Assembly (NCBI RefSeq): GCF_003018115.1
Contig: NZ_CP027457.1
Length of the DNA stretch: 64,000 bases
Strand: one strand, 5' to 3'
Source: Escherichia coli
GTDB taxonomy: Bacteria; Pseudomonadota; Gammaproteobacteria; Enterobacterales; Enterobacteriaceae
Positions 14,774 through 35,631 of the stretch are shown in pieces. Under the pieces are notes generated by a model. It did not search any database. It was not told the DNA's origin and was given only the letters and a program-made list of their open reading frames with translations. Both the position numbers and the translations under genes were made by a program. The first letter of the stretch is position 1, and every line of letters starts with the position of its first letter.

Positions 14774-14782
14774 GGAACGACG

Positions 14783-18016: not shown

Positions 18017-18022
18017 GCTCCA

Positions 18023-18056: not shown

Positions 18057-18101
18057 TTGTGATCTCAATCACATATCCACCCGACGAATAATTCTTGCCC
18101 A

Positions 18102-18129
18102 ACCGCTCACCGCCATTCCTGACCGCTTA
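18102..18129. promoter_or_regulatory. Direct repeats ACCGCTCA ... ACCGCTTA (12-nt spacer) upstream of btsT; candidate BtsR (YehT) LytTR-type binding site
   Basis: Repeats read directly about 280 bp upstream of the btsT start; assignment rests on the recalled BtsR motif ACC[GA]CT[CT]A. Confidence 0.45.
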
Positions 18130-18408
18130 CATCCCTAAAATAACCACTCAGTTATTTACCTTACTTTACGCGCGCGTATCTCTGGCAACATCACTGCAGG
18201 ATAGCGGTCAATTTACCTCCTCAAACGCAACGCAAACCTAGAACGGCTTCGGCCTATGATTAACAAATTACTCTATGGATTTTGGTTTGCAGGAAGGCAG
18301 CAAGTGAGTGAATCCCCGGGAGCTTACAACAGTAAGTGACAGGGGTGAACGAACGCAGCTGCCGCACCTGTAAGCCAAAAGACGACGAGTAAAATGCCAG
18401 GTTTTACT

Positions 18409-20559
18409 ATGGATACGAAAAAACTATTCAAGCACATACCCTGGGTGATTCTCGGAATCATCGGTGCATTCTGCCTCGCGGTAGTTGCATTACGTCGGGG
18501 GGAGCACGTCAGCGCCCTGTGGATCGTGGTCGCCTCTGTGTCGGTGTATCTGGTGGCGTATCGCTACTACAGTCTGTACATCGCCCAGAAGGTGATGAAA
18601 CTCGACCCCACGCGCGCGACGCCTGCGGTTATTAACAACGACGGTCTGAACTACGTTCCGACCAACCGTTACGTGTTGTTTGGTCACCACTTCGCCGCTA
18701 TCGCCGGTGCTGGTCCGCTGGTTGGTCCGGTTCTCGCCGCGCAGATGGGCTACCTGCCTGGCACGCTGTGGCTGCTGGCGGGGGTAGTGCTGGCCGGTGC
18801 GGTACAGGACTTTATGGTGCTGTTTATCTCCTCTCGCCGTAACGGCGCATCTCTCGGTGAGATGATCAAAGAAGAGATGGGACCAGTACCGGGGACTATC
18901 GCGCTGTTTGGCTGTTTCTTAATCATGATCATCATCCTCGCCGTTCTGGCGCTGATTGTGGTTAAAGCCCTGGCCGAAAGTCCGTGGGGTGTCTTCACCG
19001 TTTGCTCAACCGTACCAATTGCGCTGTTTATGGGTATCTATATGCGCTTTATTCGTCCGGGGCGTGTGGGTGAAGTCTCTGTCATTGGTATCGTGCTGCT
19101 GGTTGCCTCTATCTACTTCGGTGGCGTGATTGCTCACGATCCGTACTGGGGTCCGGCACTGACCTTTAAAGACACCACCATTACCTTCGCGCTGATTGGC
19201 TATGCGTTTGTTTCCGCACTGCTGCCGGTGTGGCTGATCCTCGCACCACGCGACTATCTGGCAACCTTCCTGAAAATCGGCGTTATCGTCGGCCTGGCGC
19301 TGGGTATCGTGGTGCTGAACCCGGAACTGAAAATGCCTGCGATGACCCAGTACATTGACGGTACTGGCCCGCTGTGGAAAGGCGCTCTGTTCCCGTTCCT
19401 GTTCATCACCATCGCCTGTGGTGCGGTATCTGGCTTCCACGCACTGATCTCTTCCGGTACGACGCCGAAACTGCTGGCTAATGAAACCGACGCGCGTTTC
19501 ATCGGTTATGGCGCAATGCTGATGGAGTCCTTCGTGGCGATTATGGCGCTGGTTGCTGCGTCCATCATCGAACCAGGTCTTTACTTCGCGATGAATACCC
19601 CGCCTGCTGGCCTTGGCATCACCATGCCTAACCTGCATGAAATGGGTGGCGAGAACGCGCCGATCATCATGGCGCAGTTGAAAGACGTTACCGCACACGC
19701 GGCGGCGACCGTCAGCTCCTGGGGCTTCGTGATTTCGCCAGAGCAGATCCTGCAAACCGCGAAAGACATTGGTGAGCCTTCTGTCCTGAACCGTGCAGGT
19801 GGTGCGCCGACGCTGGCGGTAGGTATCGCTCACGTGTTCCACAAAGTGCTGCCGATGGCTGACATGGGCTTCTGGTATCACTTCGGTATTCTGTTCGAAG
19901 CACTGTTCATCCTGACCGCGCTGGATGCGGGTACCCGTTCTGGCCGCTTTATGTTGCAAGACCTGCTGGGTAACTTCATCCCGTTCCTGAAAAAAACCGA
20001 CTCTCTGGTTGCCGGTATCATCGGTACTGCGGGCTGTGTGGGTCTGTGGGGCTACCTGCTGTATCAGGGCGTGGTCGATCCGCTGGGCGGCGTTAAGAGC
20101 CTGTGGCCGTTGTTCGGTATCTCCAACCAGATGCTGGCAGCCGTGGCGCTGGTACTGGGTACCGTTGTGCTGATTAAGATGAAGCGCACCCAATACATCT
20201 GGGTAACTGTTGTTCCGGCTGTATGGCTGCTTATCTGCACCACCTGGGCACTGGGTCTGAAACTGTTCAGCACCAACCCGCAGATGGAAGGCTTCTTCTA
20301 CATGGCAAGCCAGTACAAAGAGAAGATTGCTAACGGTACTGACCTGACGGCGCAGCAGATTGCCAACATGAACCACATCGTTGTGAACAACTACACCAAC
20401 GCAGGTCTGAGTATTCTGTTCCTGATTGTGGTGTACAGCATCATCTTCTACGGTTTCAAAACCTGGCTGAAGGTGCGTAACAGCGACAAACGTACTGACA
20501 AAGAAACACCGTACGTTCCAATCCCGGAAGGCGGCGTGAAGATCTCTTCGCACCACTAA
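18409..20559 (+). CDS. btsT: Pyruvate/H+ symporter, CstA family
   Basis: Translation from MDTKKLFKHIPWVILGIIG... (716 aa), many TM segments; start placed at the second Met of the ORF-track entry. Confidence 0.9.
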   Translation: MDTKKLFKHIPWVILGIIGAFCLAVVALRRGEHVSALWIVVASVSVYLVAYRYYSLYIAQKVMKLDPTRATPAVINNDGLNYVPTNRYVLFGHHFAAIAGAGPLVGPVLAAQMGYLPGTLWLLAGVVLAGAVQDFMVLFISSRRNGASLGEMIKEEMGPVPGTIALFGCFLIMIIILAVLALIVVKALAESPWGVFTVCSTVPIALFMGIYMRFIRPGRVGEVSVIGIVLLVASIYFGGVIAHDPYWGPALTFKDTTITFALIGYAFVSALLPVWLILAPRDYLATFLKIGVIVGLALGIVVLNPELKMPAMTQYIDGTGPLWKGALFPFLFITIACGAVSGFHALISSGTTPKLLANETDARFIGYGAMLMESFVAIMALVAASIIEPGLYFAMNTPPAGLGITMPNLHEMGGENAPIIMAQLKDVTAHAAATVSSWGFVISPEQILQTAKDIGEPSVLNRAGGAPTLAVGIAHVFHKVLPMADMGFWYHFGILFEALFILTALDAGTRSGRFMLQDLLGNFIPFLKKTDSLVAGIIGTAGCVGLWGYLLYQGVVDPLGGVKSLWPLFGISNQMLAAVALVLGTVVLIKMKRTQYIWVTVVPAVWLLICTTWALGLKLFSTNPQMEGFFYMASQYKEKIANGTDLTAQQIANMNHIVVNNYTNAGLSILFLIVVYSIIFYGFKTWLKVRNSDKRTDKETPYVPIPEGGVKISSHH

Positions 20560-20567
20560 CCGTGTTT

Positions 20568-20596
20568 AGCCCCGCTTCGGCGGGGCTTTGTTCTTA
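20568..20596 (+). terminator. GC-rich hairpin followed by TTGTTCTT between btsT and yjiX; terminator or attenuator
   Basis: AGCCCCGC-ttcg-GCGGGGCT then a T-rich stretch; yjiX follows only about 20 bp later. Confidence 0.4.
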
Positions 20597-20608
20597 TCAG
20601 AGTGAACT

Positions 20609-20812
20609 ATGTTTGGTAACTTAGGACAGGCAAAAAAATATCTCGGCCAGGCGGCGAAGATGTTGATTGGCATTCCAGACTACGACAACTACGTCGAGCA
20701 TATGAAGACCAACCATCCCGACAAGCCGTACATGAGCTATGAAGAATTCTTCCGCGAACGCCAGAACGCGCGCTACGGCGGCGATGGTAAAGGCGGTATG
20801 CGCTGTTGTTAA
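20609..20812 (+). CDS. yjiX: Small DUF466-family protein downstream of btsT
   Basis: 67-aa ORF; size, position and recalled YjiX identity. Confidence 0.75.
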
Positions 20813-20822
20813 TGGAGAGAGC

Positions 20823-21779
20823 ATGAACCCGATTGCAGTTACCCTACTCACCGGTTTTTTAGGCGCGGGCAAAACCACCCTGCTGCGCCATATTCTTAAC
20901 GAACAACACGGCTACAAGATTGCCGTGATTGAAAACGAATTCGGCGAAGTCTCCGTTGATGATCAATTGATTGGTGATCGCGCCACGCAGATCAAAACGC
21001 TGACCAACGGCTGCATCTGCTGTTCGCGCTCCAACGAGCTGGAGGACGCGCTACTCGACCTGCTGGACAATCTCGACAAGGGCAATATTCAGTTCGATCG
21101 TCTGGTCATTGAATGCACCGGCATGGCCGATCCCGGCCCGATTATTCAGACCTTTTTCTCCCATGAGATTTTATGCCAGCGTTACCTGCTGGACGGGGTG
21201 ATTGCGCTGGTGGATGCGGTACATGCCGATGAGCAGATGAACCAGTTCACCATCGCCCAGTCCCAGGTGGGCTACGCTGACCGTATTCTGCTGACTAAAA
21301 CCGACGTCGCAGGCGAAGCAGAGAAACTGCGTGAACGCCTGGCGCGCATCAACGCCCGTGCACCGGTCTACACCGTCACCCACGGGGACATCGACCTGGG
21401 CCTGCTGTTCAACACCAACGGTTTTATGCTGGAAGAAAACGTCGTCAGCACCAAACCGCGTTTTCACTTTATCGCGGATAAACAAAACGATATTTCGTCG
21501 ATTGTGGTGGAACTGGATTACCCGGTAGATATCAGCGAAGTTTCCCGCGTGATGGAAAACCTGCTGCTGGAATCGGCGGATAAACTGCTGCGTTACAAAG
21601 GGATGCTATGGATTGACGGCGAACCTAACCGTCTGCTGTTCCAGGGCGTCCAGCGCCTCTACAGCGCCGACTGGGACCGCCCGTGGGGCGATGAAAAACC
21701 GCATAGCACGATGGTGTTTATCGGGATTCAGTTGCCGGAGGAAGAGATTCGGGCAGCGTTTGCGGGGTTGAGGAAGTAA
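20823..21779 (+). CDS. yjiA: COG0523 (CobW/P47K family) metal-chaperone-type GTPase
   Basis: Translation from MNPIAVTLLTGFLGAGKTTLLRHIL (P-loop GxxGxGKT), contains CxCC motif (GCICCS); 318 aa. The ORF-track start at 20739 overlaps yjiX and is rejected. Confidence 0.85.
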   Translation: MNPIAVTLLTGFLGAGKTTLLRHILNEQHGYKIAVIENEFGEVSVDDQLIGDRATQIKTLTNGCICCSRSNELEDALLDLLDNLDKGNIQFDRLVIECTGMADPGPIIQTFFSHEILCQRYLLDGVIALVDAVHADEQMNQFTIAQSQVGYADRILLTKTDVAGEAEKLRERLARINARAPVYTVTHGDIDLGLLFNTNGFMLEENVVSTKPRFHFIADKQNDISSIVVELDYPVDISEVSRVMENLLLESADKLLRYKGMLWIDGEPNRLLFQGVQRLYSADWDRPWGDEKPHSTMVFIGIQLPEEEIRAAFAGLRK

Positions 21780-21788
21780 GGGGTTATG

Positions 21789-21819
21789 GGCCGGATAAGG
21801 CGCAGCCGCATCCGGCCTG
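21789..21819. repeat. REP element between convergent yjiA and mrr
   Basis: GCCGGATAAGGCGCAGCCGCATCCGGCC read directly. Confidence 0.6.
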
Positions 21820-21824
21820 ATATT

Positions 21825-22739
21825 TCACTCAAAATAGTCCATATCCAGTTTCGGCACCTTCAACAAACGTGAAGAAACCCCTACTTCGTTTTCGATCATT
21901 AAGTGCACCAGGCGTTCCCCATCAACCAACACCATACCCTCGACGGATTGAGCAAAGTCACGCGCCTGAGACGTAAATCCAGAAGTGGTAATAAACACCC
22001 CACGTTTCGCCTTTTGCCCAGCCAGTGCGCCGTAAAATGCCTGTAATTCTGGCCTGCCTACAGTGTTCTGCCAACGTTTTGCCTGAACATAAACTTTCTC
22101 CAGGCCAAGTTTATCAAGCGATATCACACCATCGATGCCACCATCTCCAGTACCGCCAACACGCTGCAAATCATCACGGTGGCCGCCATACCCCAGGCGA
22201 TGCAAAACATCCAGAACAATGACTTCAAAGCGCGAAGGAGAAACCTGCAATAAGTTTTCCAGAACCTCATCAGCCACCGCATCACTAAGCTCTTTTAGCG
22301 CCTGATCTAACCGATCGTCCGGGCTGCTCTTTGCAAGTTCTTCATGATCGGGAGAGTCGGCTTTCGGATCTAAATCGACGGCATCCGGCCGTGACTTAAG
22401 TTTGACATTCACAAAATCGAAGGCCAGATGGTTCGTCTCCTGCTCCGTCATTGGCTGGGGATGAGACGCAACCCAGTCAAAACCCGCAGGAGTCAGGCAC
22501 CATTTGCCACGCGACAAACTTTGCGACAACCCGGCACGTTTTAAACGGTCATGCGCCCAGCCTGCACGATTTTTATAAACAAGTTGTCCGCTGGTAATGA
22601 CTTTCGCTCGCTGGCTGTCATCCAGTCCTAATGCATCCGCGGCAGCCTCATGAACATCACGCGCGGCTGCACCTTCCGGTTTTGTCGCCAGATAACGCAG
22701 AACAGGTTCAATAAATTTGTCATAGGTAGGAACCGTCAT
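21825..22739 (-). CDS. mrr: Mrr type IV restriction endonuclease (restricts methylated adenine/cytosine DNA)
   Basis: 304-aa ORF MTVPTYDKFIEPVLRYLATKPEG... with C-terminal Mrr-cat PD-(D/E)xK region; matches Mrr as recalled. Confidence 0.9.
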   Translation of the reverse strand: MTVPTYDKFIEPVLRYLATKPEGAAARDVHEAAADALGLDDSQRAKVITSGQLVYKNRAGWAHDRLKRAGLSQSLSRGKWCLTPAGFDWVASHPQPMTEQETNHLAFDFVNVKLKSRPDAVDLDPKADSPDHEELAKSSPDDRLDQALKELSDAVADEVLENLLQVSPSRFEVIVLDVLHRLGYGGHRDDLQRVGGTGDGGIDGVISLDKLGLEKVYVQAKRWQNTVGRPELQAFYGALAGQKAKRGVFITTSGFTSQARDFAQSVEGMVLVDGERLVHLMIENEVGVSSRLLKVPKLDMDYFE

Positions 22740-22926
22740 AGTACATCCTTGCAGAATCAGGTAGATGTTTTTCGGCTACTATAACACTACCAAAATAGAC
22801 GAACACGTTAGAAATGAGTCAGTTGCTGTGACCGTGGTCATTGCCCGGAAAGGTACAGAAAGCTAAGATAAGGCGTTATGGGCCTTAAATATTTGGACAG
22901 GCCCACACAGCAATGGATTAATAACA

Positions 22927-25900
22927 ATGATGAATAAATCCAATTTTGAATTCCTGAAGGGCGTCAACGACTTTACCTATGCCATCGCCTGTGCGGCGGA
23001 AAATAACTACCCGGATGATCCCAACACGACGCTGATTAAAATGCGTATGTTTGGCGAAGCCACAGCGAAACATCTTGGTCTGTTACTCAACATCCCCCCT
23101 TGTGAGAATCAACACGATCTCCTGCGCGAACTCGGCAAAATCGCCTTCGTTGATGACAACATTCTCTCTGTATTCCACAAATTACGCCGCATTGGTAACC
23201 AGGCGGTGCACGAATATCATAACGATCTCGACGATGCCCAGATGTGCCTGCGACTCGGGTTTCGCCTGGCTGTCTGGTACTACCGTCTGGTCACTAAAGA
23301 TTATGACTTCCCGGTGCCGGTGTTTGTGTTGCCGGAACGTGGTGAAAACCTCTATCACCAGGAAGTGCTGACGCTAAAACAACAGCTTGAACAGCAGGTG
23401 CGAGAAAAAGCGCAGAGTCAGGCAGAAGTCGAAGCACAACAGCAGAAGCTGGTTGCCCTGAACGGCTATATCGCCATTCTGGAAGGCAAGCAGCAGGAAA
23501 CCGAAGCGCAAACCCAGGCTCGCCTTGCTGCACTGGAAGCACAGCTCGCCGAGAAGAACGCGGAACTAGCCAAGCAGACCGAACAGGAACGTAAGGCTTA
23601 CCACAAAGAAATTACCGATCAGGCCATCAAGCGTACACTCAATCTTAGCGAAGAAGAGAGCCGCTTCCTGATTGACGCGCAACTGCGTAAAGCAGGCTGG
23701 CAGGCCGATAGCAAAACCCTGCGCTTCTCCAAAGGCGCGCGCCCGGAACCCGGCGTCAATAAAGCCATTGCCGAATGGCCGACCGGGAAAGATGAAACGG
23801 GTAATCAGGGCTTTGCGGATTATGTGCTGTTTGTCGGTCTCAAACCCATCGCGGTGGTAGAAGCGAAACGTAAAAATATCGACGTTCCCGGCAAGCTCAA
23901 TGAGTCGTATCGCTACAGTAAATGTTTCGATAATGGCTTCCTGCGGGAAACCTTGCTTGAGCACTACTCACCGGATGAAGTGCATGAAGCGGTGCCGGAG
24001 TATGAAACCAGTTGGCAGGACACCAGCGGCCAACAACGGTTTAAAATCCCCTTCTGCTACTCGACCAACGGGCGCGAATACCGCGCAGCGATGAAGACTA
24101 AAAGTGGCATCTGGTATCGCGACGTGCGTGATACCCGCAATATGTCGAAAGCCTTACCCGAGTGGCATCGCCCGGAAGAGTTGCTGGAAATGCTCGGCAG
24201 CGAACCGCAAAAACAGAATCAGTGGTTTGCCGATAATCCCGGCATGAGCGAGCTGGGCCTGCGTTATTATCAGGAAGATGCCGTCCGCGCGGTTGAAAAG
24301 GCAATCGTCAAGGGTCAACAAGAGATCCTGCTGGCGATGGCGACCGGTACCGGTAAAACCCGCACCGCAATTGCCATGATGTTCCGCCTGATCCAGTCCC
24401 AGCGTTTTAAACGCATTCTCTTCCTTGTGGATCGCCGTTCTCTTGGCGAGCAGGCGCTGGGGGCGTTTGAAGATACGCGTATTAACGGCGACACTTTCAA
24501 CAGCATTTTCGACATTAAAGGGCTGACGGATAAATTCCCCGAAGACAGCACCAAAATTCACGTTGCCACCGTACAGTCGCTGGTGAAACGCACCCTGCAA
24601 TCGGATGAACCGATGCCGGTAGCCCGTTACGACTGTATCGTCGTCGATGAAGCGCATCGCGGCTATATTCTCGATAAAGAGCAGACCGAAGGCGAACTGC
24701 AGTTCCGCAGCCAACTGGATTACGTTTCTGCCTACCGTCGTATTCTCGATCACTTCGATGCGGTAAAAATTGCTCTCACCGCCACCCCGGCGCTGCATAC
24801 GGTGCAGATTTTCGGCGAGCCGGTTTACCGTTACACCTACCGTACCGCGGTTATCGACGGTTTTCTGATCGACCAGGATCCGCCGATTCAGATCACCACC
24901 CGCAACGCACAGGAAGGGGTTTATCTCTCCAAAGGCGAGCAGGTTGAGCGCATCAGCCCGCAGGGGGAAGTGATCAACGACACCCTGGAAGACGATCAGG
25001 ATTTTGAGGTCGCCGACTTTAACCGTGGCCTGGTGATCCCGGCGTTTAACCGCGCCGTCTGTAACGAACTCACCAACTACCTTGACCCGACCGGGTTACA
25101 AAAAACGCTGGTCTTCTGCGTCACCAATGCCCATGCCGATATGGTGGTGGAAGAGTTGCGTACCGCGTTCAAGAAAAAGTATCCGCAACTGGAGCACGAC
25201 GCGATCATCAAGATCACCGGTGATGCCGATAAAGACGCGCGCAAAGTGCAGACCATGATCACCCGCTTCAATAAAGAGCGGCTGCCCAATATTGTCGTAA
25301 CCGTCGACCTGCTGACGACCGGCGTCGATATTCCGTCGATCTGTAATATCGTGTTCCTGCGTAAAGTACGCAGCCGTATTCTGTACGAGCAGATGAAAGG
25401 CCGCGCCACGCGCTTGTGCCCGGACGTGAATAAAACCAGCTTTAAGATTTTCGACTGCGTCGATATCTACAGCACGCTGGAGAGCGTCGATACCATGCGT
25501 CCGGTGGTGGTGCGCCCGAAGGTGGAACTGCAAACGCTGGTCAACGAAATTACCGATTCGGAAACCTATAAAATCACCGAAGCGGATGGCCGTAGCTTTG
25601 CCGAGCACAGCCATGAACAACTGGTGGCGAAGCTCCAGCGCATCATCGGCCTGGCCACGTTTAACCGTGACCGCAGCGAAACGATAGATAAACAGGTGCG
25701 TCGTCTGGATGAGCTATGCCAGGACGCGGCGGGCGTGAACTTTAACGGCTTCGCCTCGCGCCTGCGGGAAAAAGGGCCGCACTGGAGCGCCGAAGTCTTT
25801 AACAAACTGCCTGGCTTTATCGCCCGTCTGGAAAAGCTGAAAACCGACATCAACAACCTGAATGATGCGCCGATCTTCCTCGATATCGACGATGAAGTGG

Positions 25901-26439
25901 TGAGTGTAAAATCGCTGTACGGTGATTACGACACGCCGCAGGATTTCCTCGAAGCCTTTGACTCGCTGGTGCAACGTTCCCCGAACGCGCAACCAGCATT
26001 GCAGGCGGTGATTAATCGCCCGCGCGATCTCACCCGTAAAGGGCTGGTCGAGCTACAGGAGTGGTTTGACCGCCAGCACTTTGAGGAATCTTCCCTGCGC
26101 AAAGCGTGGAAAGAGACGCGCAATGAAGATATCGCCGCCCGGCTGATTGGACATATTCGCCGCGCTGCGGTGGGCGATGCGCTGAAACCGTTTGAGGAAC
26201 GTGTCGATCACGCGCTGACGCGCATTAAGGGCGAAAACGACTGGAGCAGCGAGCAATTAAGCTGGCTCGATCGTTTAGCGCAGGCGCTGAAAGAGAAAGT
26301 GGTGCTCGACGACGATGTCTTCAAAACCGGCAACTTCCACCGTCGCGGCGGGAAGGCGATGCTGCAAAGAACCTTTGACGATAATCTCGACAGCCTGCTC
26401 GATAAATTCAGCGATTATATCTGGGACGAGCTGGCCTGA
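22927..26439 (+). CDS. hsdR: Type I restriction enzyme R subunit (family IA), SF2 helicase/translocase plus nuclease
   Basis: 1170-aa ORF MMNKSNFEFLKG...; motifs MATGTGKT (Walker A) and VVDEAHRG (DEAH); matches EcoKI-type HsdR as recalled. Confidence 0.95.
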   Translation: MMNKSNFEFLKGVNDFTYAIACAAENNYPDDPNTTLIKMRMFGEATAKHLGLLLNIPPCENQHDLLRELGKIAFVDDNILSVFHKLRRIGNQAVHEYHNDLDDAQMCLRLGFRLAVWYYRLVTKDYDFPVPVFVLPERGENLYHQEVLTLKQQLEQQVREKAQSQAEVEAQQQKLVALNGYIAILEGKQQETEAQTQARLAALEAQLAEKNAELAKQTEQERKAYHKEITDQAIKRTLNLSEEESRFLIDAQLRKAGWQADSKTLRFSKGARPEPGVNKAIAEWPTGKDETGNQGFADYVLFVGLKPIAVVEAKRKNIDVPGKLNESYRYSKCFDNGFLRETLLEHYSPDEVHEAVPEYETSWQDTSGQQRFKIPFCYSTNGREYRAAMKTKSGIWYRDVRDTRNMSKALPEWHRPEELLEMLGSEPQKQNQWFADNPGMSELGLRYYQEDAVRAVEKAIVKGQQEILLAMATGTGKTRTAIAMMFRLIQSQRFKRILFLVDRRSLGEQALGAFEDTRINGDTFNSIFDIKGLTDKFPEDSTKIHVATVQSLVKRTLQSDEPMPVARYDCIVVDEAHRGYILDKEQTEGELQFRSQLDYVSAYRRILDHFDAVKIALTATPALHTVQIFGEPVYRYTYRTAVIDGFLIDQDPPIQITTRNAQEGVYLSKGEQVERISPQGEVINDTLEDDQDFEVADFNRGLVIPAFNRAVCNELTNYLDPTGLQKTLVFCVTNAHADMVVEELRTAFKKKYPQLEHDAIIKITGDADKDARKVQTMITRFNKERLPNIVVTVDLLTTGVDIPSICNIVFLRKVRSRILYEQMKGRATRLCPDVNKTSFKIFDCVDIYSTLESVDTMRPVVVRPKVELQTLVNEITDSETYKITEADGRSFAEHSHEQLVAKLQRIIGLATFNRDRSETIDKQVRRLDELCQDAAGVNFNGFASRLREKGPHWSAEVFNKLPGFIARLEKLKTDINNLNDAPIFLDIDDEVVSVKSLYGDYDTPQDFLEAFDSLVQRSPNAQPALQAVINRPRDLTRKGLVELQEWFDRQHFEESSLRKAWKETRNEDIAARLIGHIRRAAVGDALKPFEERVDHALTRIKGENDWSSEQLSWLDRLAQALKEKVVLDDDVFKTGNFHRRGGKAMLQRTFDDNLDSLLDKFSDYIWDELA

Positions 26440-26515
26440 CACGGTATCATTCCCGGCAATTTCTTCTTCTGCGGCCCAATAAATTTGGGCCGCTGCTTAA
26501 TTTACGGAACACCCA

Positions 26516-28105
26516 ATGAACAATAACGATCTGGTCGCGAAGCTGTGGAAGCTGTGCGACAACCTGCGCGATGGCGGCGTTTCCTATCAAAACTACGTCA
26601 ATGAACTCGCCTCGCTGCTGTTTTTGAAAATGTGTAAAGAGACCGGGCAGGAAGCGGAATACCTGCCGGAAGGCTACCGCTGGGATGACCTGAAATCCCG
26701 CATCGGCCAGGATCAATTGCAGTTCTACCGTAACCTGCTGGTACATCTGGGCGCCGACAATCAAAAGCTGGTGCAGGCGGTGTTCCAGAACGTCAACACC
26801 ACCATTACCCAGCCAAAACAGTTGACCGAACTGGTCACAAATATGGATTCGCTGGACTGGTATAACGGTGCGCACGGTAAGTCGCGCGATGACTTCGGCG
26901 ATATGTACGAAGGGCTGTTGCAGAAGAACGCCAACGAAACCAAGTCTGGCGCGGGCCAGTACTTCACCCCGCGTCCGCTGATTAAAACCATTATTCATCT
27001 GCTGAAACCGCAGCCGCGTGAAGTGGTGCAGGACCCGGCAGCAGGTACGGCGGGCTTTTTGATTGAAGCCGACCGCTACGTTAAGTCGCAGACCAATGAT
27101 CTGGACGACCTTGATGGCGATACGCAGGATTTCCAGATCCACCGCGCGTTTATCGGCCTCGAACTGGTGCCCGGCACCCGTCGTCTGGCGCTGATGAACT
27201 GCCTGCTGCACGATATTGAAGGCAACCTCGACCACGGCGGCGCAATCCGTCTGGGCAACACTCTGGGTAGCGACGGCGAAAACCTGCCGAAGGCGCATAT
27301 TGTCGCCACTAACCCGCCGTTTGGCAGCGCCGCAGGCACCAACATTACCCGCACCTTTGTTCACCCGACCAGCAATAAACAGTTGTGCTTTATGCAGCAT
27401 ATTATCGAAACGCTGCACCCCGGCGGTCGTGCGGCGGTGGTGGTGCCGGATAACGTGCTGTTTGAAGGCGGCAAAGGCACCGACATTCGTCGTGACCTGA
27501 TGGATAAGTGTCATCTGCACACTATTCTGCGTCTGCCGACCGGTATTTTTTACGCGCAGGGCGTGAAAACCAACGTGCTGTTCTTTACCAAAGGCACGGT
27601 GGCGAACCCGAATCAGGATAAGAACTGCACCGATGATGTGTGGGTGTACGACCTGCGTACCAATATGCCGAGCTTCGGCAAGCGCACGCCGTTTACTGAC
27701 GAACATCTGCAGCCGTTTGAGCGGGTGTATGGCGAAGATCCCCACGGCTTAAGCCCGCGCACTGAAGGCGACTGGGAATTCGACGCAGAAAAAAGTGAAA
27801 TTGCCGACAGCGAAGAGAACAAAAACACCGACCAGCATCTGGCTACCAGCCGCTGGCGCAAGTTCAGCCGCGAGTGGATCCGCACCGCGAAATCCGATTC
27901 GCTGGATATCTCCTGGCTGAAAGATAAAGACAGCATTGACGCCGACAACCTGCCGGAGCCGGATGTATTAGCGGCAGAAGCGATGGGCGAGCTGGTACAG
28001 GCGCTGGGCGAACTGGATGCGTTGATGCGTGAACTGGGGGCGAGCGATGAGGCGGATGCACAGCGTCAGTTGCTGGAAGAAGCGTTTGGTGGGGTGAAGG
28101 AATGA
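26516..28105 (+). CDS. hsdM: Type I restriction-modification M subunit (N6-adenine methyltransferase)
   Basis: 529-aa ORF; catalytic NPPF motif and AdoMet-binding region (DPAAGTAGFL). Confidence 0.95.
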   Translation: MNNNDLVAKLWKLCDNLRDGGVSYQNYVNELASLLFLKMCKETGQEAEYLPEGYRWDDLKSRIGQDQLQFYRNLLVHLGADNQKLVQAVFQNVNTTITQPKQLTELVTNMDSLDWYNGAHGKSRDDFGDMYEGLLQKNANETKSGAGQYFTPRPLIKTIIHLLKPQPREVVQDPAAGTAGFLIEADRYVKSQTNDLDDLDGDTQDFQIHRAFIGLELVPGTRRLALMNCLLHDIEGNLDHGGAIRLGNTLGSDGENLPKAHIVATNPPFGSAAGTNITRTFVHPTSNKQLCFMQHIIETLHPGGRAAVVVPDNVLFEGGKGTDIRRDLMDKCHLHTILRLPTGIFYAQGVKTNVLFFTKGTVANPNQDKNCTDDVWVYDLRTNMPSFGKRTPFTDEHLQPFERVYGEDPHGLSPRTEGDWEFDAEKSEIADSEENKNTDQHLATSRWRKFSREWIRTAKSDSLDISWLKDKDSIDADNLPEPDVLAAEAMGELVQALGELDALMRELGASDEADAQRQLLEEAFGGVKE

Positions 28106-29430
28106 GTGCGGGGAAATTGCCAGAGGGGTGGGTTGAAACTCAATTAGAAAATATCGTTGATATTTTAGACTCAATGCGTGTCCCGGTTAATAATTCTGAG
28201 AGACAATCACGCATTGCAGGAAAAAAAGAAAATGAACTTTATCCCTATTTTGGTGCTACCGGTGAAGTCGGTAAAATTGATGATTATATTTTTGATGAAG
28301 AACTTGTTGCATTAGGTGAAGATGGTGTTCCTTTTTTTGATGGGCACAAAAATAAGGCTTATATGCTGTATGGTAAAACGTGGGTGAATAATCATGCTCA
28401 TGTAATAAGAGCTATCTCTGGACTAAGCCATAACAAGTATTTATGCCATTATCTTAACCAATTCGACTATCATGATTATGTAAACGGCGGGACCAGGCTT
28501 AAACTTACACAAGCGAATATGAGAAAACTACCTGTTAGTTTAGCGCCTCTCGCCGAACAAAAAATCATCGCAGAAAAACTCGATACGCTGCTGGCGCAGG
28601 TAGAGAGCACCAAAGCACGTCTTGAGCAAATCCCACAAATCCTGAAACGTTTTCGTCAGGCGGTGTTGGCTGCTGTTGTTAATGGAAAATTATCAAAGAA
28701 CACGAAGCAATGGGAAATATACTTATTAAAAAATCTTTGTACTAGCATTTCAGATGGCGATCATCAGGCTCCTCCAAAATCAGAAACAGGAGTGCCTTTC
28801 CTCGTAATCTCCGATGTTAATAAAGGGGTGATTGATTTTGATAATGTAACCAGATGGGTGCCTGAATCTTACTACCAATCGCTAAAAGAAATTAGAAAAC
28901 CATGCCAATATGATATTTTATATACAGTTACAGGTTCTTATGGAATACCTGTAATTGTTAACGACAATAAACCATTTTGTTTCCAGCGACATATTGCCAT
29001 CATCAAGCCAAACAGAAATTTAATTGATCATAGATTCTTAGCTTTCTATTTAGAATCACCACAAATTCTCAAACATGCAAGTGATGTTGCTACTGGGACC
29101 GCACAAAAAACAGTATCGCTGTCGAGTCTCCGAAATTTTGAGATCTCTGTTCCCCCTTTAAAAGAACAACACGAAATCGTTCGTCGCGTCGAGCAACTCT
29201 TCGCCTACGCCGACACTATTGAAAAACAGGTCAACAACGCCCTGGCCCGCGTCAACAACCTGACGCAATCCATTCTGGCAAAAGCGTTCCGTGGTGAACT
29301 CACCGCCCAGTGGCGGGCCGAAAACCCGGAATTGATCAGCGGAGAAAACAGCGCCGCCGCGTTGCTGGAGAAAATCAAAGCTGAACGCGCAGCCAGCGGG
29401 GGTAAAAAAGCCTCGCGTAAAAAATCCTGA
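28102..29430 (+). CDS. hsdS: Type I restriction-modification S (specificity) subunit, family IA, with two target-recognition domains unlike EcoKI
   Basis: 442-aa ORF overlapping the hsdM stop (ATGA). Conserved N-terminus MSAGKLPEGWV, central LAEQKIIAEKLDTLLAQVESTKAR... and C-terminal EIVRRVEQLFAYADTIEKQV... repeats match IA-family HsdS as recalled; the two TRD-coding stretches are markedly AT-rich. Confidence 0.9.
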   Translation: MSAGKLPEGWVETQLENIVDILDSMRVPVNNSERQSRIAGKKENELYPYFGATGEVGKIDDYIFDEELVALGEDGVPFFDGHKNKAYMLYGKTWVNNHAHVIRAISGLSHNKYLCHYLNQFDYHDYVNGGTRLKLTQANMRKLPVSLAPLAEQKIIAEKLDTLLAQVESTKARLEQIPQILKRFRQAVLAAVVNGKLSKNTKQWEIYLLKNLCTSISDGDHQAPPKSETGVPFLVISDVNKGVIDFDNVTRWVPESYYQSLKEIRKPCQYDILYTVTGSYGIPVIVNDNKPFCFQRHIAIIKPNRNLIDHRFLAFYLESPQILKHASDVATGTAQKTVSLSSLRNFEISVPPLKEQHEIVRRVEQLFAYADTIEKQVNNALARVNNLTQSILAKAFRGELTAQWRAENPELISGENSAAALLEKIKAERAASGGKKASRKKS

Positions 29431-29442
29431 ACATTATTTTCT

Positions 29443-29467
29443 GGCGCACCTTTCCGGTGCGCTTTTA
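29443..29467 (+). terminator. Terminator hairpin after hsdS
   Basis: GGCGCACC-tttcc-GGTGCGC followed by TTTTAATT. Confidence 0.55.
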
Positions 29468-29564
29468 ATTATTTCACGCCAATCATAATTCACGCAAATA
29501 TATTTAAATCACTCCAGAAATTGCCCATTTTATTCTATTTTTAGCTGGACTTTCCCTGTATTTA

Positions 29565-29580
29565 CTGATGATATATCCAG
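29565..29580. promoter_or_regulatory. LexA (SOS) box CTG-N10-CAG upstream of symE
   Basis: CTGATGATATATCCAG read directly, with an overlapping second CTGTATTTACTG half-site; symE is known to be SOS-induced. Confidence 0.5.
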
Positions 29581-29584
29581 GTAT

Positions 29585-29665
29585 TTAGCGCGGTGCGGAT
29601 GTGCGCCAACACACCCGCACCGCTCATCACAATCACTATTTATGGAGAATAGTAATCATGACTGA
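29585..29665 (-). ncRNA. symR: Approximate position of SymR antisense sRNA (type I antitoxin) opposite the symE 5' UTR/start codon
   Basis: Placed by established knowledge that SymR is transcribed antisense across the symE translation-initiation region; a 9-bp-stem hairpin GCGGTGCGG...CCGCACCGC (29590..29623) is visible. Ends are not determinable from sequence alone. Confidence 0.4.
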
Positions 29666-29999
29666 CACGCATTCTATTGCACAACCGTTCGAAGCAGAAG
29701 TCTCCCCGGCAAATAACCGTCAATTAACCGTGAGTTATGCGAGCCGCTACCCGGATTACAGCCGTATTCCCGCCATCACCCTGAAAGGTCAGTGGCTGGA
29801 AGCCGCCGGTTTTGCCACCGGCACGGCGGTAGATGTCAAAGTGATGGAAGACTGTATTGTCCTCACCGCCCAACCCGCCGCCGCCGAAGAGAGCGAACTG
29901 ATGCAGTCACTGCGCCAGGTGTGCAAACTGTCGGCGCGTAAACAAAAGCAGGTGCAGGAGTTCATTGGGATGATTGCGGGTAAACAGAAAGTCGCCTGA
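29658..29999 (+). CDS. symE: SOS-induced toxin SymE (AbrB/MazE-fold, type I TA system)
   Basis: Translation from [52 protein letters not shown]... (113 aa); start set at the internal Met with GGAGAA upstream, by recall of SymE. Confidence 0.85.
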
Positions 30000-30045
30000 T
30001 ACATTGACCCGGTAGCGCCAGTGCTACCGGGTATTATTCGCCGCG

Positions 30046-32139
30046 TTATACCAACGCGCTCTCCATCTGTTTTTCAAATGCCTGACGAATTAATCCCATA
30101 ATATAAGGAAGTTGTGCGAGGTCGCTGAAACCAATTTCCACATCGCCATTGCCCCATCGCCCAACATTTGTCACATCTTTGGCAATACCTTTCGGATCGA
30201 CCAGTTCATGAAACTGCATATTAAGCGACAATCGCAGTCGGCTTTTTTGCGGCACAACATCAACAAAATTCGTTTCAGCTTTAAACGCAATATAGAGCTT
30301 CAATACTTCCTGCGTGATCCCTGCGTCCAGGCGCATAACTTCATCGCTAAGATGATCGAATAACACCCGGCTATGCGAACCATCAGCAAGAAAAGGATAA
30401 TCACTCAGGCTGTAACTGGTTTTGTTTTCCGGCTGCCCCCGATAAACAGCTAAAACCTCTTCAGGAAGAGAAGGCGCTTGCCAGACCTGAACCGCGAGAT
30501 CGGCCAGACGATCGGCTCGGGCGTGAATGGCGGCTTCATCCCATTTTTCGCACTGTCCAAGACCGATATTCAAATAAAGCGGGCTATGCTTAAAGCCGTC
30601 TTCAATATCGCGTTTTTCCGCGAAAGGTCTGTCACTGTAGCGGGAGTTATAGCGCGTTAAAGTGAGATTCCCCAACGTATGTAACAGTTCTTTATGCACA
30701 CGCTGCCAGTCGCTTCCCAGCTCTTCGCGCCATTTAGCCGACAAATTTTCGTTCTGCGGCATAATATGTTCAATCGTAAACTCTTCCACGCGCTCTCTGC
30801 GTTTATCGTTTTCCAGTCGTCGTAACCAGTAGCTGCGACTACGGAAGTTATAGAGATCGCGAACTTTTAATTCCCGTTTAAATTCATCATCGTTGGGGAA
30901 ACGACGATATGAAGGTAGATTCAAAAAATGTACCTGAATACTTTCCAGATAATTTTCTTTATTAATAACTTTATAAAAAGTGGCAAATGTCTTGTTCAAA
31001 GAATTTGTCGGAATTGCACATACTGCACGGCGGAAAACATAAGATTCAATTAAACGAATTATGCTCAGGAAATCTTCGTGAGACAAATCGTCATTTTTAT
31101 AGTCATGATAAAGCGCCAGTAAGAAAGGATACGCCACATCAACCTTTAACTCGCGCAAATCCTGAAAAGCCGTAGCAAGCGATTTGTCACTTTCTTTTCC
31201 CAATGCCATTGCACAGTAATACTCCGCGTAGATGTGAATATCTTCAACCAGCCGATCTACGCCTTTTTCAGCAACACTCTGGCTGCGGGCATGGAGTTTA
31301 AATGCCTCATAGACTTCATCTGTCCGAGGGATCTCCCCCGTTTTTACCGTCAGATAATGACGCATAAAACTGTCAAAATATTCGCTGTAACCTTGCTGAC
31401 CAAAAGCGACTTCCATTGGACGCCAGTGATCTTCATACAACCGGGTTTGATGCTCTGGTTCGAGGCCCATCAGAATAAAATTGCGCACCAGATCGGCCTG
31501 ACTTAACGCCTTACCGGTGGAGTTCATACTTTCAAAAATCAGTTGCGGATTATCCTGACCACGATTAAGCGCCACATCGACAATTAATAACTTTGCTAAC
31601 CCACGACATAAGGGGATCAAGTCATCACCGAGTTTGGCAATTTGCTCATCAAAGAAAGTAAAGTTTTCCATTATTCGATGGGAATAGTTTTCTGGCATTG
31701 GTCTTTGTTTTATTAACGCCAGTAAACTGTCTTTATCAGTCTCGGTCAGCAGTAATTTAAAACCTTTCTCGCCGGACTCATAAGGATTGAGCAAATAATA
31801 ATTACGCAATTTCATTGCCGAAAAGCCATCAAAAACTTCGTCTTCGCCAAGATGGCGCGATAAAGCCTCAATCAGCAACATTGCGGTCGTCAGCCGCTGC
31901 TGACCATCAATGACCAGCAACGGAGAAATACCAGAAACCTGATACAATCCCTGCTCTATATAAACAACCGAACCGATAAAATGCGCTGATATATCGTCAC
32001 GCTTTCCTGCACGAATGATGTCGTCCCAAAGTTGCCGACATTGTTGCCCGGTCCATGAATAAGTCCGTTGATAAATGGGAATAACAAACTGCTGCGAACG
32101 TTTTAAAAAATCGAGTAGGCGAGCTTCTGTAGCTTTCAT
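30046..32139 (-). CDS. Single-chain GmrSD-family protein (N-terminal DUF262 ParB-like NTPase, C-terminal DUF1524 His-Me finger nuclease); putative type IV modification-dependent restriction endonuclease
   Basis: 697-aa ORF; N-terminal motifs FVIPIYQRTYSW and DGQQRLTT (DUF262); C-terminal EHIMPQ ... LGNLTL (DUF1524/HNH-like). Gene is AT-rich relative to flanks and sits where mcrBC lies in K-12. Confidence 0.8.
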   Translation of the reverse strand: MKATEARLLDFLKRSQQFVIPIYQRTYSWTGQQCRQLWDDIIRAGKRDDISAHFIGSVVYIEQGLYQVSGISPLLVIDGQQRLTTAMLLIEALSRHLGEDEVFDGFSAMKLRNYYLLNPYESGEKGFKLLLTETDKDSLLALIKQRPMPENYSHRIMENFTFFDEQIAKLGDDLIPLCRGLAKLLIVDVALNRGQDNPQLIFESMNSTGKALSQADLVRNFILMGLEPEHQTRLYEDHWRPMEVAFGQQGYSEYFDSFMRHYLTVKTGEIPRTDEVYEAFKLHARSQSVAEKGVDRLVEDIHIYAEYYCAMALGKESDKSLATAFQDLRELKVDVAYPFLLALYHDYKNDDLSHEDFLSIIRLIESYVFRRAVCAIPTNSLNKTFATFYKVINKENYLESIQVHFLNLPSYRRFPNDDEFKRELKVRDLYNFRSRSYWLRRLENDKRRERVEEFTIEHIMPQNENLSAKWREELGSDWQRVHKELLHTLGNLTLTRYNSRYSDRPFAEKRDIEDGFKHSPLYLNIGLGQCEKWDEAAIHARADRLADLAVQVWQAPSLPEEVLAVYRGQPENKTSYSLSDYPFLADGSHSRVLFDHLSDEVMRLDAGITQEVLKLYIAFKAETNFVDVVPQKSRLRLSLNMQFHELVDPKGIAKDVTNVGRWGNGDVEIGFSDLAQLPYIMGLIRQAFEKQMESALV

Positions 32140-32235
32140 TCTGACGTCTTTCCGTGAAACGATGATTTCGCAATAATAACCACTTCCTTGTGGAGGTTAT
32201 AGAGAAATCCTGTTTATCCGCGACGAACATACCCC

Positions 32236-32400
32236 TCACTCCACATCCTCCCTGCGTAACCCGATATCCCTCAACCGTTCATCACTCATCTGCTGTAACA
32301 CCCGTCGGGCCTGCATTTGCCGCCGCCAACGCCTCACCGCCTGCCAGAGTTGCACAAGTCTGATAAACGGCGTTTTGGCTTTGTTTTCGTAAAATTCCAT
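32236..32400 (-). CDS. yjiS: Small DUF1127-family protein
   Basis: 54-aa ORF MEFYENKAKTPFIRLVQLWQAVRRWRRQMQARRVLQQMSDERLRDIGLRREDVE, hand-translated (below the ORF-track size cut-off); AGGAGG 6 nt upstream of ATG. Confidence 0.7.
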   Translation of the reverse strand: MEFYENKAKTPFIRLVQLWQAVRRWRRQMQARRVLQQMSDERLRDIGLRREDVE

Positions 32401-32576
32401 CTGCTGCCTCCTCATCTTTCAGAGGCTTCATCATCCGTCTTCTGGCAGTTCACAATACAGATGCAAATATTAGTTTTATTTAACATACAGACAGGTTAAA
32501 ACAGCATCTGCATCCGGTTTTTTAGCCTCATCTGTACCGGTTTTTCTCTCTGTATGGTCCAAATAAGGAATACAGC

Positions 32577-33989
32577 ATGACGCGTTATCAACATCTGGCA
32601 ACTCTGCTTGCCGAGCGGATTGAGCAAGGGCTGTATCGTCACGGGGAGAAATTGCCGTCGGTGCGCAGCTTAAGTCAGGAGCACGGCGTCAGCATCAGCA
32701 CCGTGCAGCAGGCGTATCAGACGCTGGAAACGATGAAACTCATCACTCCGCAGCCGCGTTCGGGGTATTTTGTCGCACAACGTAAAGCCCAGCCGCCAGT
32801 GCCACCAATGACGCGTCCGGTGCAGCGCCCGGTGGAAATTACCCAGTGGGATCAGGTGCTGGATATGCTGGAGGCGCATAGCGACAGTTCCATTGTTCCA
32901 TTAAGCAAAAGCACGCCGGATGTCGAAACGCCCAGCCTGAAACCACTCTGGCGGGAGCTAAGCCGGGTGGTACAGCATAATCTGCAAACCGTTCTCGGTT
33001 ATGACTTGTTAGCCGGTCAGCGAGTGTTGCGAGAGCAAATTGCCCGCCTGATGCTCGACAGCGGCTCGGTGGTCACCGCCGATGACATCATCATCACCAG
33101 CGGCTGCCATAACTCGATGTCGATGGCGTTAATGGCGGTGTGTAAACCGGGCGATATTGTCGCGGTCGAATCCCCCTGTTACTACGGTTCAATGCAGATG
33201 CTGCGCGGCATGGGCGTGAAAGTGATTGAAATCCCAACCGATCCAGAAACAGGCATCAGCGTTGAAGCGCTGGAACTGGCGCTGGAACAGTGGCCGATTA
33301 AAGGCATCATTCTGGTGCCAAACTGTAATAATCCGCTGGGATTTATTATGCCGGACGCGCGCAAACGGGCCGTTCTCTCTCTCGCTCAGCGTCATGATAT
33401 TGTGATTTTTGAAGATGATGTCTACGGCGAACTGGCAACGGAGTATCCGCGCCCGCGGACCATTCATTCCTGGGATATCGACGGGCGAGTGCTGCTGTGC
33501 AGTTCGTTCAGTAAAAGCATTGCACCTGGCCTGCGTGTGGGCTGGGTCGCACCGGGGCGTTATCACGATAAACTGCTGCATATGAAATATGCCATCAGCA
33601 GCTTTAATGTACCGTCTACGCAAATGGCGGCGGCGACGTTTGTGCTGGAAGGTCACTATCATCGCCATATCCGGCGGATGCGGCAGATCTATCAGCGCAA
33701 TTTGGCGCTTTATACCTGCTGGATACGGGAATATTTTCCCTGCGAAATCTGTATTACGCGCCCGAAAGGCGGATTTTTACTGTGGATCGAATTGCCTGAA
33801 CAGGTCGATATGGTCTGCGTCGCGCGGCAGCTATACCGCATGAAAATCCAGGTGGCGGCAGGCTCGATTTTCTCGGCTTCCGGCAAATACCGTAATTGTC
33901 TACGTATCAACTGCGCTTTGCCGCTCAGCGAAACCTATCGCGAAGCACTGAAGCAAATTGGCGAGGCCGTGTATCAGGCAATGGAATGA
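32577..33989 (+). CDS. yjiR: MocR-type regulator (GntR HTH fused to class I aminotransferase-like domain)
   Basis: 470-aa ORF; N-terminal HTH (KLPSVRSLSQEHGVSISTVQQAYQTLE) and PLP-fold C-terminus including SFSKS (putative PLP-lysine region). Confidence 0.85.
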   Translation: MTRYQHLATLLAERIEQGLYRHGEKLPSVRSLSQEHGVSISTVQQAYQTLETMKLITPQPRSGYFVAQRKAQPPVPPMTRPVQRPVEITQWDQVLDMLEAHSDSSIVPLSKSTPDVETPSLKPLWRELSRVVQHNLQTVLGYDLLAGQRVLREQIARLMLDSGSVVTADDIIITSGCHNSMSMALMAVCKPGDIVAVESPCYYGSMQMLRGMGVKVIEIPTDPETGISVEALELALEQWPIKGIILVPNCNNPLGFIMPDARKRAVLSLAQRHDIVIFEDDVYGELATEYPRPRTIHSWDIDGRVLLCSSFSKSIAPGLRVGWVAPGRYHDKLLHMKYAISSFNVPSTQMAAATFVLEGHYHRHIRRMRQIYQRNLALYTCWIREYFPCEICITRPKGGFLLWIELPEQVDMVCVARQLYRMKIQVAAGSIFSASGKYRNCLRINCALPLSETYREALKQIGEAVYQAME

Positions 33990-34107
33990 ATTCGAATTAG
34001 TGGCGAGGCCCCTGATTTCCTCTCACGAATCGCCTGTGACTCGTTTTATCTTTGCAGGGGCATCGCCACGTTCCAGCATGGCTTAGGCAAAGTGTGCTTT
34101 GTTCATA

Positions 34108-34205
34108 CCGGATGCGGCGTGAACGCCTTATCCGGCTTACAAATCGCGCAAATTCAATAGATTGCAGAGGTAATGTAGGTCTGATAAGCGTAGCACATCA
34201 GGCAG
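34108..34205. repeat. Two REP elements between yjiR and rpnD
   Basis: CCGGATGCGGCGTGAACGCCTTATCCGGC and GTAGGTCTGATAAGCGTAGCACATCAGGCA read directly. Confidence 0.6.
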
Positions 34206-34230
34206 CTTTGCGTTTGTCATCAGTCTCTGA

Positions 34231-35165: not shown

Positions 35166-35631
35166 GGCGATCCGTCACCTGTAGATAAGATGGCCCGACT
35201 GTAGCGACTAACAAAACCATTCTCACCCGGCAATTTCTCGTTCCCCGAGGTGCTTTCCAGGCTATTTTTGTTCCTCTGCAAACGATACATTTTTCCGGAA
35301 ACAGGCTCGCGTTTTACATGTCCTGTACCCGGCAGATATTCCCCTTTCCACCGCGCTCTTTTGATTAACCGCAAATTTTAATTACACTTAAGGTGTATAT
35401 TTTCTATGCAACCCATCAATTCAAGAGGTGTAATGTGCTGATGACTATTTGTAATCGTTATACATTCTGACCTGGAGTCAGAAGGTATTTCTCTGTCTGT
35501 GTGTTCACAGGCAGTGTGGTTGATTACATGAAATTCAGTACATTTGTCCTTCTCGCCTGCCTTTCGTCATTACCGACGGTATTGAATTTCGTTTTCCCCG
35601 TTGGGGTTCTCCGGACAAGGAGTTGTTTGTT

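Follow-up and report, generated by a model that had tools for sequence, protein, structure and literature searches.

The immigration control region of Escherichia coli K-12 carries mrr, hsdRMS, symE, mcrBC, yjiV, yjiT and yjiS, in that order. GmrSD homologues, including APECO1_2080 and UTI89_C5048, are known to stand in place of McrBC at this region (He et al. 2015, Fig. 8; PMC4437046), and a 2025 EcoSal Plus review describes the same (PMC12707154). The island homologue has only ~24% identity to Eco94GmrSD (PMC4437046). Eco94GmrSD and EcoCT596GmrSD are prophage-borne type IV enzymes for DNA with hydroxymethylcytosine (hmC) or glucosyl-hmC, and combine a DUF262 with a DUF1524 domain, bearing DGQQR-type and (D/E)HxxP motifs. 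The same domain pair occurs in BrxU and HEC-06, GmrSD-like proteins embedded in BREX/Hma systems, and HEC-06 lost its phage defence when the DGQQR and EHxxP motifs were mutated. RloF of Campylobacter is a DUF262 gene within type I loci. Type IA restriction systems of the EcoKI/EcoBI/StySPI family share conserved hsdR and hsdM genes, with an hsdS in which conserved N-terminal, central and C-terminal regions accompany two swappable recognition domains.

We analyzed a window of 64,000 nucleotides of E. coli (contig NZ_CP027457.1), in which the stretch 21825-32400 is very probably the immigration control region, with four independent modules in a known, frequent configuration. The original prediction had placed Mrr, a type I hsdRMS, a GmrSD-like enzyme and symE/symR here, with mcrBC missing, and all of these genes proved to be present and intact. 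Like the islands described by He et al., the locus holds a GmrSD homologue alongside a type I system and lacks McrBC (PMC4437046, PMC12707154), an arrangement that is already known and constitutes an ordinary variant. The features are listed below.

20823-21779, plus strand: yjiA, GTPase, left anchor (NF008578, 683 bits; RefSeq annotation; homology of O157:H7, ST95 and SA186 stops at 21779/21780)
21825-22739, minus strand: mrr, type IV modification-dependent restriction enzyme, 304 aa (PADLOC mREase_IV, E 1.2e-173, full length; RefSeq name)
22927-26439, plus strand: hsdR, type IA (EcoKI-family) restriction subunit, 1170 aa (NF008521, 1742.7 bits; PADLOC REase_I, 2805 bits; 95-99% nucleotide identity to K-12)
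26516-28105, plus strand: hsdM, type IA methyltransferase subunit, 529 aa (PADLOC MTase_I, E 3.8e-231)
28102-29430, plus strand: hsdS, specificity subunit, 442 aa (PADLOC Specificity_I, E 1.3e-148, profile covered end to end)
29565-29580, plus strand: LexA-box-like site CTGATGATATATCCAG upstream of symE (pattern match only, CTG-N10-CAG)
29587-29663, minus strand: symR, antisense RNA to the start of symE (full-length match to Rfam RF01809, 1-77, at 95.3 bits; gathering score, 61)
29658-29999, plus strand: symE, 113 aa (NF010128, 224 bits, cutoff 132; 94% nucleotide identity to K-12)
29996-32231, no strand: cargo segment without K-12 counterpart, 2,236 bp (blastn against K-12; K-12 annotation)
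30046-32139, minus strand: GmrSD-family gene, single-chain, intact, 697 aa (Pfam GmrSD_N, GmrSD_C, DUF5655)
32236-32400, minus strand: yjiS, DUF1127, 54 aa, first gene of the conserved right flank (frameshift-free alignment with K-12 YjiS; K-12 homology restarts at 32232)
32577-33989, plus strand: yjiR, MocR-like regulator/aminotransferase, right flank (NCBIfam MocR-family matches; RefSeq name; 95-98% nucleotide identity to K-12)

The island lies between the conserved yjiA, ending at 21779, and a conserved right flank in which yjiS, yjiR, mdtM and yjiN follow one another. Between these genes the restriction content varies, with K-12, O157:H7, ST95, SA186 and Citrobacter all differing at the site, and the true anchors of the island are yjiA on the left and yjiS/yjiR on the right. 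A frameshift in yjiS, suspected from its PGAP annotation as 26-aa and 50-aa pieces, was rejected, the 54-aa reading frame being intact. The NCBIfam profiles gave no match for Mrr, GmrSD or YjiS in this stretch, and the Mrr and GmrSD calls rest on PADLOC and Pfam instead.

The locus was aligned with K-12 MG1655 by blastn. Identity was 97.7% over 18394-26443, 94.2% over 26454-28134, 91% over 28546-28691, 94.4% over 29159-29995 and 95.6% over 32232-34143, and the flanking and shared genes overall had 94-98% nucleotide identity. The chromosomal site, the anchors and the order of genes, running from yjiA to symE and resuming with yjiS/yjiR, are those of K-12. No K-12 match was obtained by blastn at 28135-28545 and 28692-29158, corresponding to the two recognition domains of hsdS, or in the cargo (29996-32231); these are precisely the parts for which a difference from K-12 had been proposed. 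Whole-locus alignment against K-12 and other strains thus confined the differences to sharply bounded segments, the cargo beginning at the symE stop codon and ending 4 nt past the yjiS stop in the K-12 alignment. All three unmatched stretches are AT-rich, GC content dropping to 0.39-0.44 within them, as compared with 0.51-0.59 in the conserved genes. The place of the 2.2-kb GmrSD cargo is taken in K-12 by 7.6 kb (4571920-4579502) with mcrB, mcrC, yjiV and yjiT, so that K-12 does have mcrBC at this position, as originally proposed, and over 18000-38000 neither a K-12-type McrBC between symE and yjiS nor any similarity to K-12 4571920-4579502 was found. Furthermore, the hsdR-hsdM spacer lacks the ERIC element of K-12.

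Mrr is a full-length orthologue of EcoKMrr, its gene having 98-99.7% nucleotide identity to K-12 mrr. The hsdR and hsdM genes are close to those of EcoKI (97.7% and 94.2% nucleotide identity, equal protein lengths), hsdM being a mosaic whose identity to K-12 ranges from 89.7% to 98.3% per 300 bp. In hsdS, a first target-recognition domain (TRD1, ~28135-28545), a conserved centre (28546-28691), a second domain (TRD2, ~28692-29158) and a conserved C-terminus (from 29159) can be distinguished; the N-terminal junction, centre and C-terminus match K-12, whereas both variable domains, with a GC content of 0.39-0.40, are unrelated to it. Compared with EcoKI and EcoBI, neither recognition domain matches. 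The whole hsdS allele is rare, occurring in 5 of 5,426 E. coli genomes, and each of its halves is paired with a different partner half in other genomes. Owing to this rarity, the strain probably has a type I specificity of its own. Judging from characterised relatives, HsdRMS would methylate its own, predicted bipartite target and cut incoming unmethylated DNA, while Mrr would cut DNA with m6A or m5C methylation of foreign origin.

SymE with its antisense RNA would form the fourth module, under SOS control. The two components of a SymE/SymR pair, the protein and a cis-antisense RNA, are both encoded, symR overlapping the symE start at 29658. Since symE is known to be SOS-controlled, the LexA-box-like site upstream may function in this response. 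The predicted SymE toxin was borne out as to the presence and intactness of symE/symR; the current K-12 RefSeq record, however, labels SymE a nucleoid-associated protein and not an endoribonuclease toxin.

Among 5,426 complete E. coli genomes, the GmrSD cargo occurs in 1,358-1,489 (~25%; the count of 1,358 is of genomes with at least 80% of the cargo segment) and mcrBC in 597 (~11%); compared with the GmrSD cargo, the K-12 layout is the rarer arrangement. Cargo, type IA hsd and mrr were found together in 253 genomes. In O157:H7 and ST95 the same symE-GmrSD module is accompanied by a type IB hsd, and mrr is absent; both lose homology to the present stretch after the stop codon of yjiA (21779/21780) and regain it at 29537. 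The ST95 strain, which we take to belong to the APEC O1/UTI89 lineage, has a cargo with 96% nucleotide identity to the present one, but its hsd is type IB and mrr is not annotated, whereas the present locus combines cargo, type IA hsd and mrr. In SA186, everything from yjiA to yjiS is replaced. The idea of a conserved scaffold was therefore upheld for the K-12-like layout but not for mrr-hsdR-hsdM as a fixed part: the exchange of hsd in O157:H7 and ST95, the replacement in SA186 and the reassortment of hsdS domains indicate that mrr-hsdRM is itself swappable. Sharply bounded differences from K-12 and the occurrence of the same cargo beside different hsd types support cassette exchange through conserved flanks, as originally suggested. 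Homologous recombination in conserved neighbouring genes would have exchanged modules as wholes on three scales nested in one another: the recognition domains of hsdS, the cargo from symE to yjiS, and the block of mrr and hsd. Neither the direction of exchange nor the ancestral arrangement can be read from the sequences.

The GmrSD-family protein, in the slot of McrBC in K-12, has its N-terminal DUF262 domain (GmrSD_N, residues 9-222; PF03235, E 4e-34) and its DUF1524 domain (GmrSD_C, 415-547; PF07510, E 1.6e-26) on one chain, followed by DUF5655 (591-690), a C-terminal domain with a YjbR/YdhG-like fold. The motifs DGQQR (78-82), of the NTPase, and EHIMP (457-461), of the (D/E)HxxP His-Me nuclease type, are both present, and D78-R82, E457, H458 and P461 are invariant in the homologue alignment. 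PADLOC HEC-06 models match residues 8-555 (E 7e-67), the profiles ending before DUF5655, and a sequence search of solved structures returned distant N-terminal matches only (9jfl, E 1e-12; SspE, E 4e-6). Based on its relatives, the single-chain enzyme, which combines a ParB-like NTPase and a His-Me finger nuclease domain with the extra YjbR/YdhG-like domain, is predicted to cut hypermodified phage DNA (e.g., with hydroxymethyl- or glucosyl-hydroxymethyl-cytosine) in an NTP-dependent manner. Unlike Eco94GmrSD and EcoCT596GmrSD, the gene is chromosomal and not borne by a prophage, and its product has the additional DUF5655; unlike the embedded genes of BrxU, HEC-06 and RloF, it is not part of the neighbouring operon, here hsd. 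A promoter and terminator scan of the cargo yielded nothing over the shuffled expectation.

In all records inspected, RefSeq/PGAP splits this gene into a 387-aa CDS and an N-terminal pseudogene, and the split raised the suspicion of a fusion or a remnant. If the gene were decaying, HsdRMS and Mrr alone would be left as working restriction systems. The gene is indeed often lost, being frameshifted by a 1-bp deletion in O157:H7 and interrupted by IS1 in some strains. In the present stretch, as in ES5 and ST95, the reading frame is intact, with 697 uninterrupted codons; it aligns end to end with homologues of 697-701 aa, the sole length difference being a 2-residue gap, its catalytic motifs are invariant, and the protein has 98% identity to the representative sequence of a cluster with 3,852 members. 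The PGAP split is best explained by a 387-aa protein model, a real CDS in the frameshifted O157:H7, that was carried onto intact alleles. A remnant is thus very unlikely, and an origin by deletion, fusing two GmrSD genes in tandem, was rejected on the same end-to-end alignment and intact frame. A different possibility is that the protein, instead of acting alone as a type IV enzyme, is an accessory of type I restriction, perhaps a backup effector upon evasion or inhibition of the type I system, with the C-terminal domain as the link. Homologues with ~71-82% identity lie inside or adjoining type I hsd operons in five of seven other taxa sampled, three of these operons show overlaps of 4-14 bp between the GmrSD gene and its neighbours, and in E. 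coli the gene adjoins an hsd of type IA, of type IB or of a third kind that is unclassified and possibly ID. At the present locus, however, symE/symR stands between hsdS and the GmrSD gene and transcription is convergent; other homologues follow BREX brxL or lie beside Mks-like genes, the embedded relatives BrxU and HEC-06 are independent of their host systems according to the cited papers, and GmrSD-like genes in general are known to tend to embed in type I systems. We therefore consider an accessory role unlikely and favor a stand-alone type IV enzyme.

The difference from K-12 could also have arisen by plain deletion of mcrBC-yjiV-yjiT, followed by insertion of an unrelated mobile element with GmrSD, instead of homologous cassette replacement. 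The cargo shares its AT-richness with horizontally acquired DNA, and IS1 and Rpn-family genes occur within or beside the region. Nevertheless, the 2,236-bp cargo has no integrase or transposase in the RefSeq annotation and no flanking repeats evident when the junctions were read by eye; the breaks fall at gene ends, the right one common to K-12 and SA186 and the left one to K-12, and the same cargo and junctions recur across unrelated lineages with different hsd modules. This makes deletion and insertion hardly credible, in comparison with homologous replacement of cassettes.

From a biological standpoint, the locus is a textbook case of defence-island cassette variation, here merely confirmed, and the additions of our analysis are small: the mis-split GmrSD gene in RefSeq, the DUF5655 fold and the rare hsdS allele. 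Two leads emerge. One is that RefSeq systematically labels as a pseudogene a defence gene that is both intact and widespread; the other is a putative enzyme that is a very common GmrSD variant of E. coli with an extra domain. The variants with DUF5655 are unusually conserved, with ~70% identity from E. coli to Kiritimatiella, and lie mostly within type I operons, some in BREX operons; full-length homologues with 70-84% identity occur in distant taxa. A literature search for DUF5655 gave nothing relevant, and no experimental report of restriction by the GmrSD subfamily with this domain was found. It is conceivable, although rather unlikely, that GmrSD-DUF5655 is an uncharacterised subfamily in which DUF5655 possibly binds DNA, and whose substrate range or activation could differ from those of known GmrSD, BrxU and SspE; it might, for example, recognize DNA with another hypermodification, or its function might be coupled to that of a type I system. 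Because the region decides which foreign DNA and phages the strain accepts, the combination of modules and the rare HsdS specificity matter for transformation, phage therapy and the tracing of gene flow in ETEC. The whole stretch was 100% identical to ETEC chromosomes bearing the same annotation.

Genes, motifs and their arrangement were read directly from the window. ORF calls, family searches and an identical record annotated by RefSeq (L001) agree on the gene order listed below. It includes three restriction functions and symE/symR, as in the original prediction, whose limits (21825-32400) coincide exactly with the stop codon of mrr and the start codon of yjiS. Chromosomal sequence 100% identical to window 21000-34000 occurs in E. 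coli F8111-1SC3, O169:H41 2014EL-1345-2 and one more isolate.

Genes of the immigration control region and its anchors
20823-21779, plus, yjiA
21825-22739, minus, mrr
22927-26439, plus, hsdR
26516-28105, plus, hsdM
28102-29430, plus, hsdS
29587-29663, minus, symR (Rfam, 95 bits)
29658-29999, plus, symE
30046-32139, minus, GmrSD-family ORF, 697 aa (Pfam GmrSD_N, GmrSD_C, DUF5655)
32236-32400, minus, yjiS
32577-33989, plus, yjiR

RefSeq divides the yjiS region (32236-32434, minus; L001 14237-14435) into two overlapping CDSs of 26 and 50 aa. A yjiS frameshift was rejected, since the 54-aa YjiS ORF is intact and aligns to K-12 without one.

The window was aligned to K-12 MG1655 using blastn, as the original prediction had proposed. 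K-12 has the order yjiR, yjiS, yjiT, yjiV (pseudogene), mcrC, mcrB, symE/symR, hsdS, hsdM, hsdR, mrr, yjiA; it thus carries mcrC and mcrB at the cargo position, and they have no counterpart between window positions 18000 and 38000, as predicted.

Blastn identity to K-12 along the window
18394-26443, btsT to hsdR, 97.7%
26454-28134, hsdM, 94.2%
28135-28545, hsdS TRD1 (first target-recognition domain), no match
28546-28691, hsdS centre, 91%
28692-29158, hsdS TRD2 (second domain), no match
29159-29995, hsdS C-terminus to symE, 94.4%
29996-32231, cargo, no match
32232-34143, yjiS and yjiR, 95.6%

The cargo measures 2,236 bp versus 7,583 bp at the same place in K-12 (4571920-4579502), and of its two break points one is the stop codon of symE and the other lies 4 nt beyond the yjiS stop. 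GC content was 0.39-0.44 in the K-12-unmatched stretches versus 0.51-0.59 elsewhere. Identity of hsdM was mosaic, from 89.7% to 98.3% per 300 bp, which fits the long-known polymorphism around hsd. The hsdR-hsdM spacer is 76 bp in the window (26440-26515) and lacks a 134-bp ERIC-containing insertion of K-12 (4583111-4583244), a small-repeat insertion polymorphism within the hsd operon region; an ERIC/IRU repeat also lies upstream of btsT (18287-18359).

The cassette idea reportedly originated with Sibley and Raleigh in 2004. Comparison between strains supported cassette exchange, although with refinements. The symE-GmrSD module of the window is also present in O157:H7 (L006) and ST95 (L007), where the stretch between yjiA and symE holds an EcoAI-family (type IB) hsdRMS and no mrr; window homology to them stops at 21779/21780 and resumes at 29537. 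In SA186 the entire yjiA-yjiS interval is replaced: brnA and fic stand there with a type I system of a third kind and a GmrSD homologue that is 76% identical (aa) to the window protein. A Citrobacter island is similar. Of 5,426 complete E. coli genomes, the base for all genome counts here, just 5 have the complete window hsdS allele; three carry its TRD2 half beside a different TRD1. Another three or four matched ~64-66% of hsdS in two pieces across the whole gene length, which we read as a shared TRD1 with a probably different TRD2. Taken together, these strains and the reassorted hsdS halves indicate three nested levels of exchange. The shared genes match K-12 in layout as predicted, but mrr-hsdRM is an exchangeable module and not a fixed scaffold.

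GmrSD cargo was at least 80% covered in 1,358 genomes (any match, 1,489) and K-12 mcrBC was found in 597, so the reference K-12 arrangement is the rarer one. The type IA hsdS frame occurred in about 921-925 genomes, and the full window layout (at least 80% covered) in 253.

The island arrangement is already known: He et al. 2015 (PMC4437046) described GmrSD homologues replacing McrBC in the island, listing APECO1_2080, UTI89_C5048 and others. A 2025 EcoSal Plus review (PMC12707154) repeats this description with yjiA and yjiN as anchors, and reports type IA systems in 14%, Mrr in 22%, McrBC in 6% and GmrSD in 12% of 8,424 enterobacterial islands.

The GmrSD-family ORF is intact in the window (697 codons, no stop). 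It aligned end to end with homologues of 697-701 aa, a 2-residue gap being the sole difference, with DGQQR (78-82) and EHxxP (457-461) invariant; full-length homologues of 70-84% identity reach very distant taxa. In all intact-ORF records inspected (including L001 12047-14140, L004 and L007), RefSeq/PGAP calls a DUF262 pseudogene and a separate CDS of 387 aa. Of the inspected records, O157:H7 alone has a genuinely split gene, in which a 1-bp deletion near nt 800 leaves ORFs of 293 and 387 aa; annotation appears to have spread the 387-aa model onto intact alleles in many genomes. The best PADLOC matches were the GmrSD-like families 'Orf5' (E 2e-223) and HEC-06 (E 7e-67), and all matches end near residue 555. 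DUF5655 follows (residues 557-697, window 30046-30468); a confident model predicts a fold like that of YdhG, YjbR and DUF419 proteins, and many small proteins have the domain by itself or as tandem copies. A literature search found no report of a biochemical test of this very common DUF5655-bearing subfamily. The cargo also contains a perfect 10-bp inverted repeat, ACCCGGTAGC...GCTACCGGGT (30007-30032), in the gap where symE and the GmrSD gene converge; it is probably a shared terminator hairpin but went unflagged in a simple terminator scan.

Judging from characterised relatives, HsdRMS would modify its own target and restrict unmodified DNA, Mrr would restrict DNA bearing m6A or m5C, and the GmrSD-family enzyme would use DGQQR to hydrolyse NTP and the His-Me nuclease motif EHxxP to cut hypermodified phage DNA. 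Both motifs are required for defence in HEC-06, and the DH-N site is catalytic in Eco94GmrSD (He et al. 2015, PMC4437046). The systems would be complementary, one acting against unmodified DNA and two against DNA modified to escape the first. SymE would be SOS-induced and repressed by SymR; pattern matching located a candidate LexA-box-like CTG-N10-CAG 78 nt upstream of symE, and the current K-12 RefSeq record describes SymE as a nucleoid-associated protein.

GmrSD homologues are known to cluster with and embed in type I systems (Machnicka et al. 2015; Payne et al. 2024). In 5 of 7 other taxa sampled for genomic context they lay within or adjoining type I hsd operons, three with overlapping reading frames (type I contexts: loci L008 5257-14243, L016 2849-12300 and L009 1374-11100); the remaining two lie after BREX brxL and beside Mks-like genes, respectively. 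In Kiritimatiella and Salinivibrio a ~71%-identical homologue lies between hsdS and hsdR with 4-bp overlaps, and in Oceanimonas a 73%-identical one overlaps the hsdR end.

Elsewhere in the window, an hpa (4-hydroxyphenylacetate catabolism) cluster (~2800-17300) lies between tsr and btsT, where K-12 lacks it. Downstream of yjiR, an Rpn-family recombination-promoting nuclease gene (~34231-35165, minus) is annotated as frameshifted, as in several other strains, and is intact in ST95-32 and SA186. The identical RefSeq record also annotates an inverse autotransporter gene, iatD (5.2 kb), and a pentapeptide-repeat (EspX6-like) gene at ~42300-50800.
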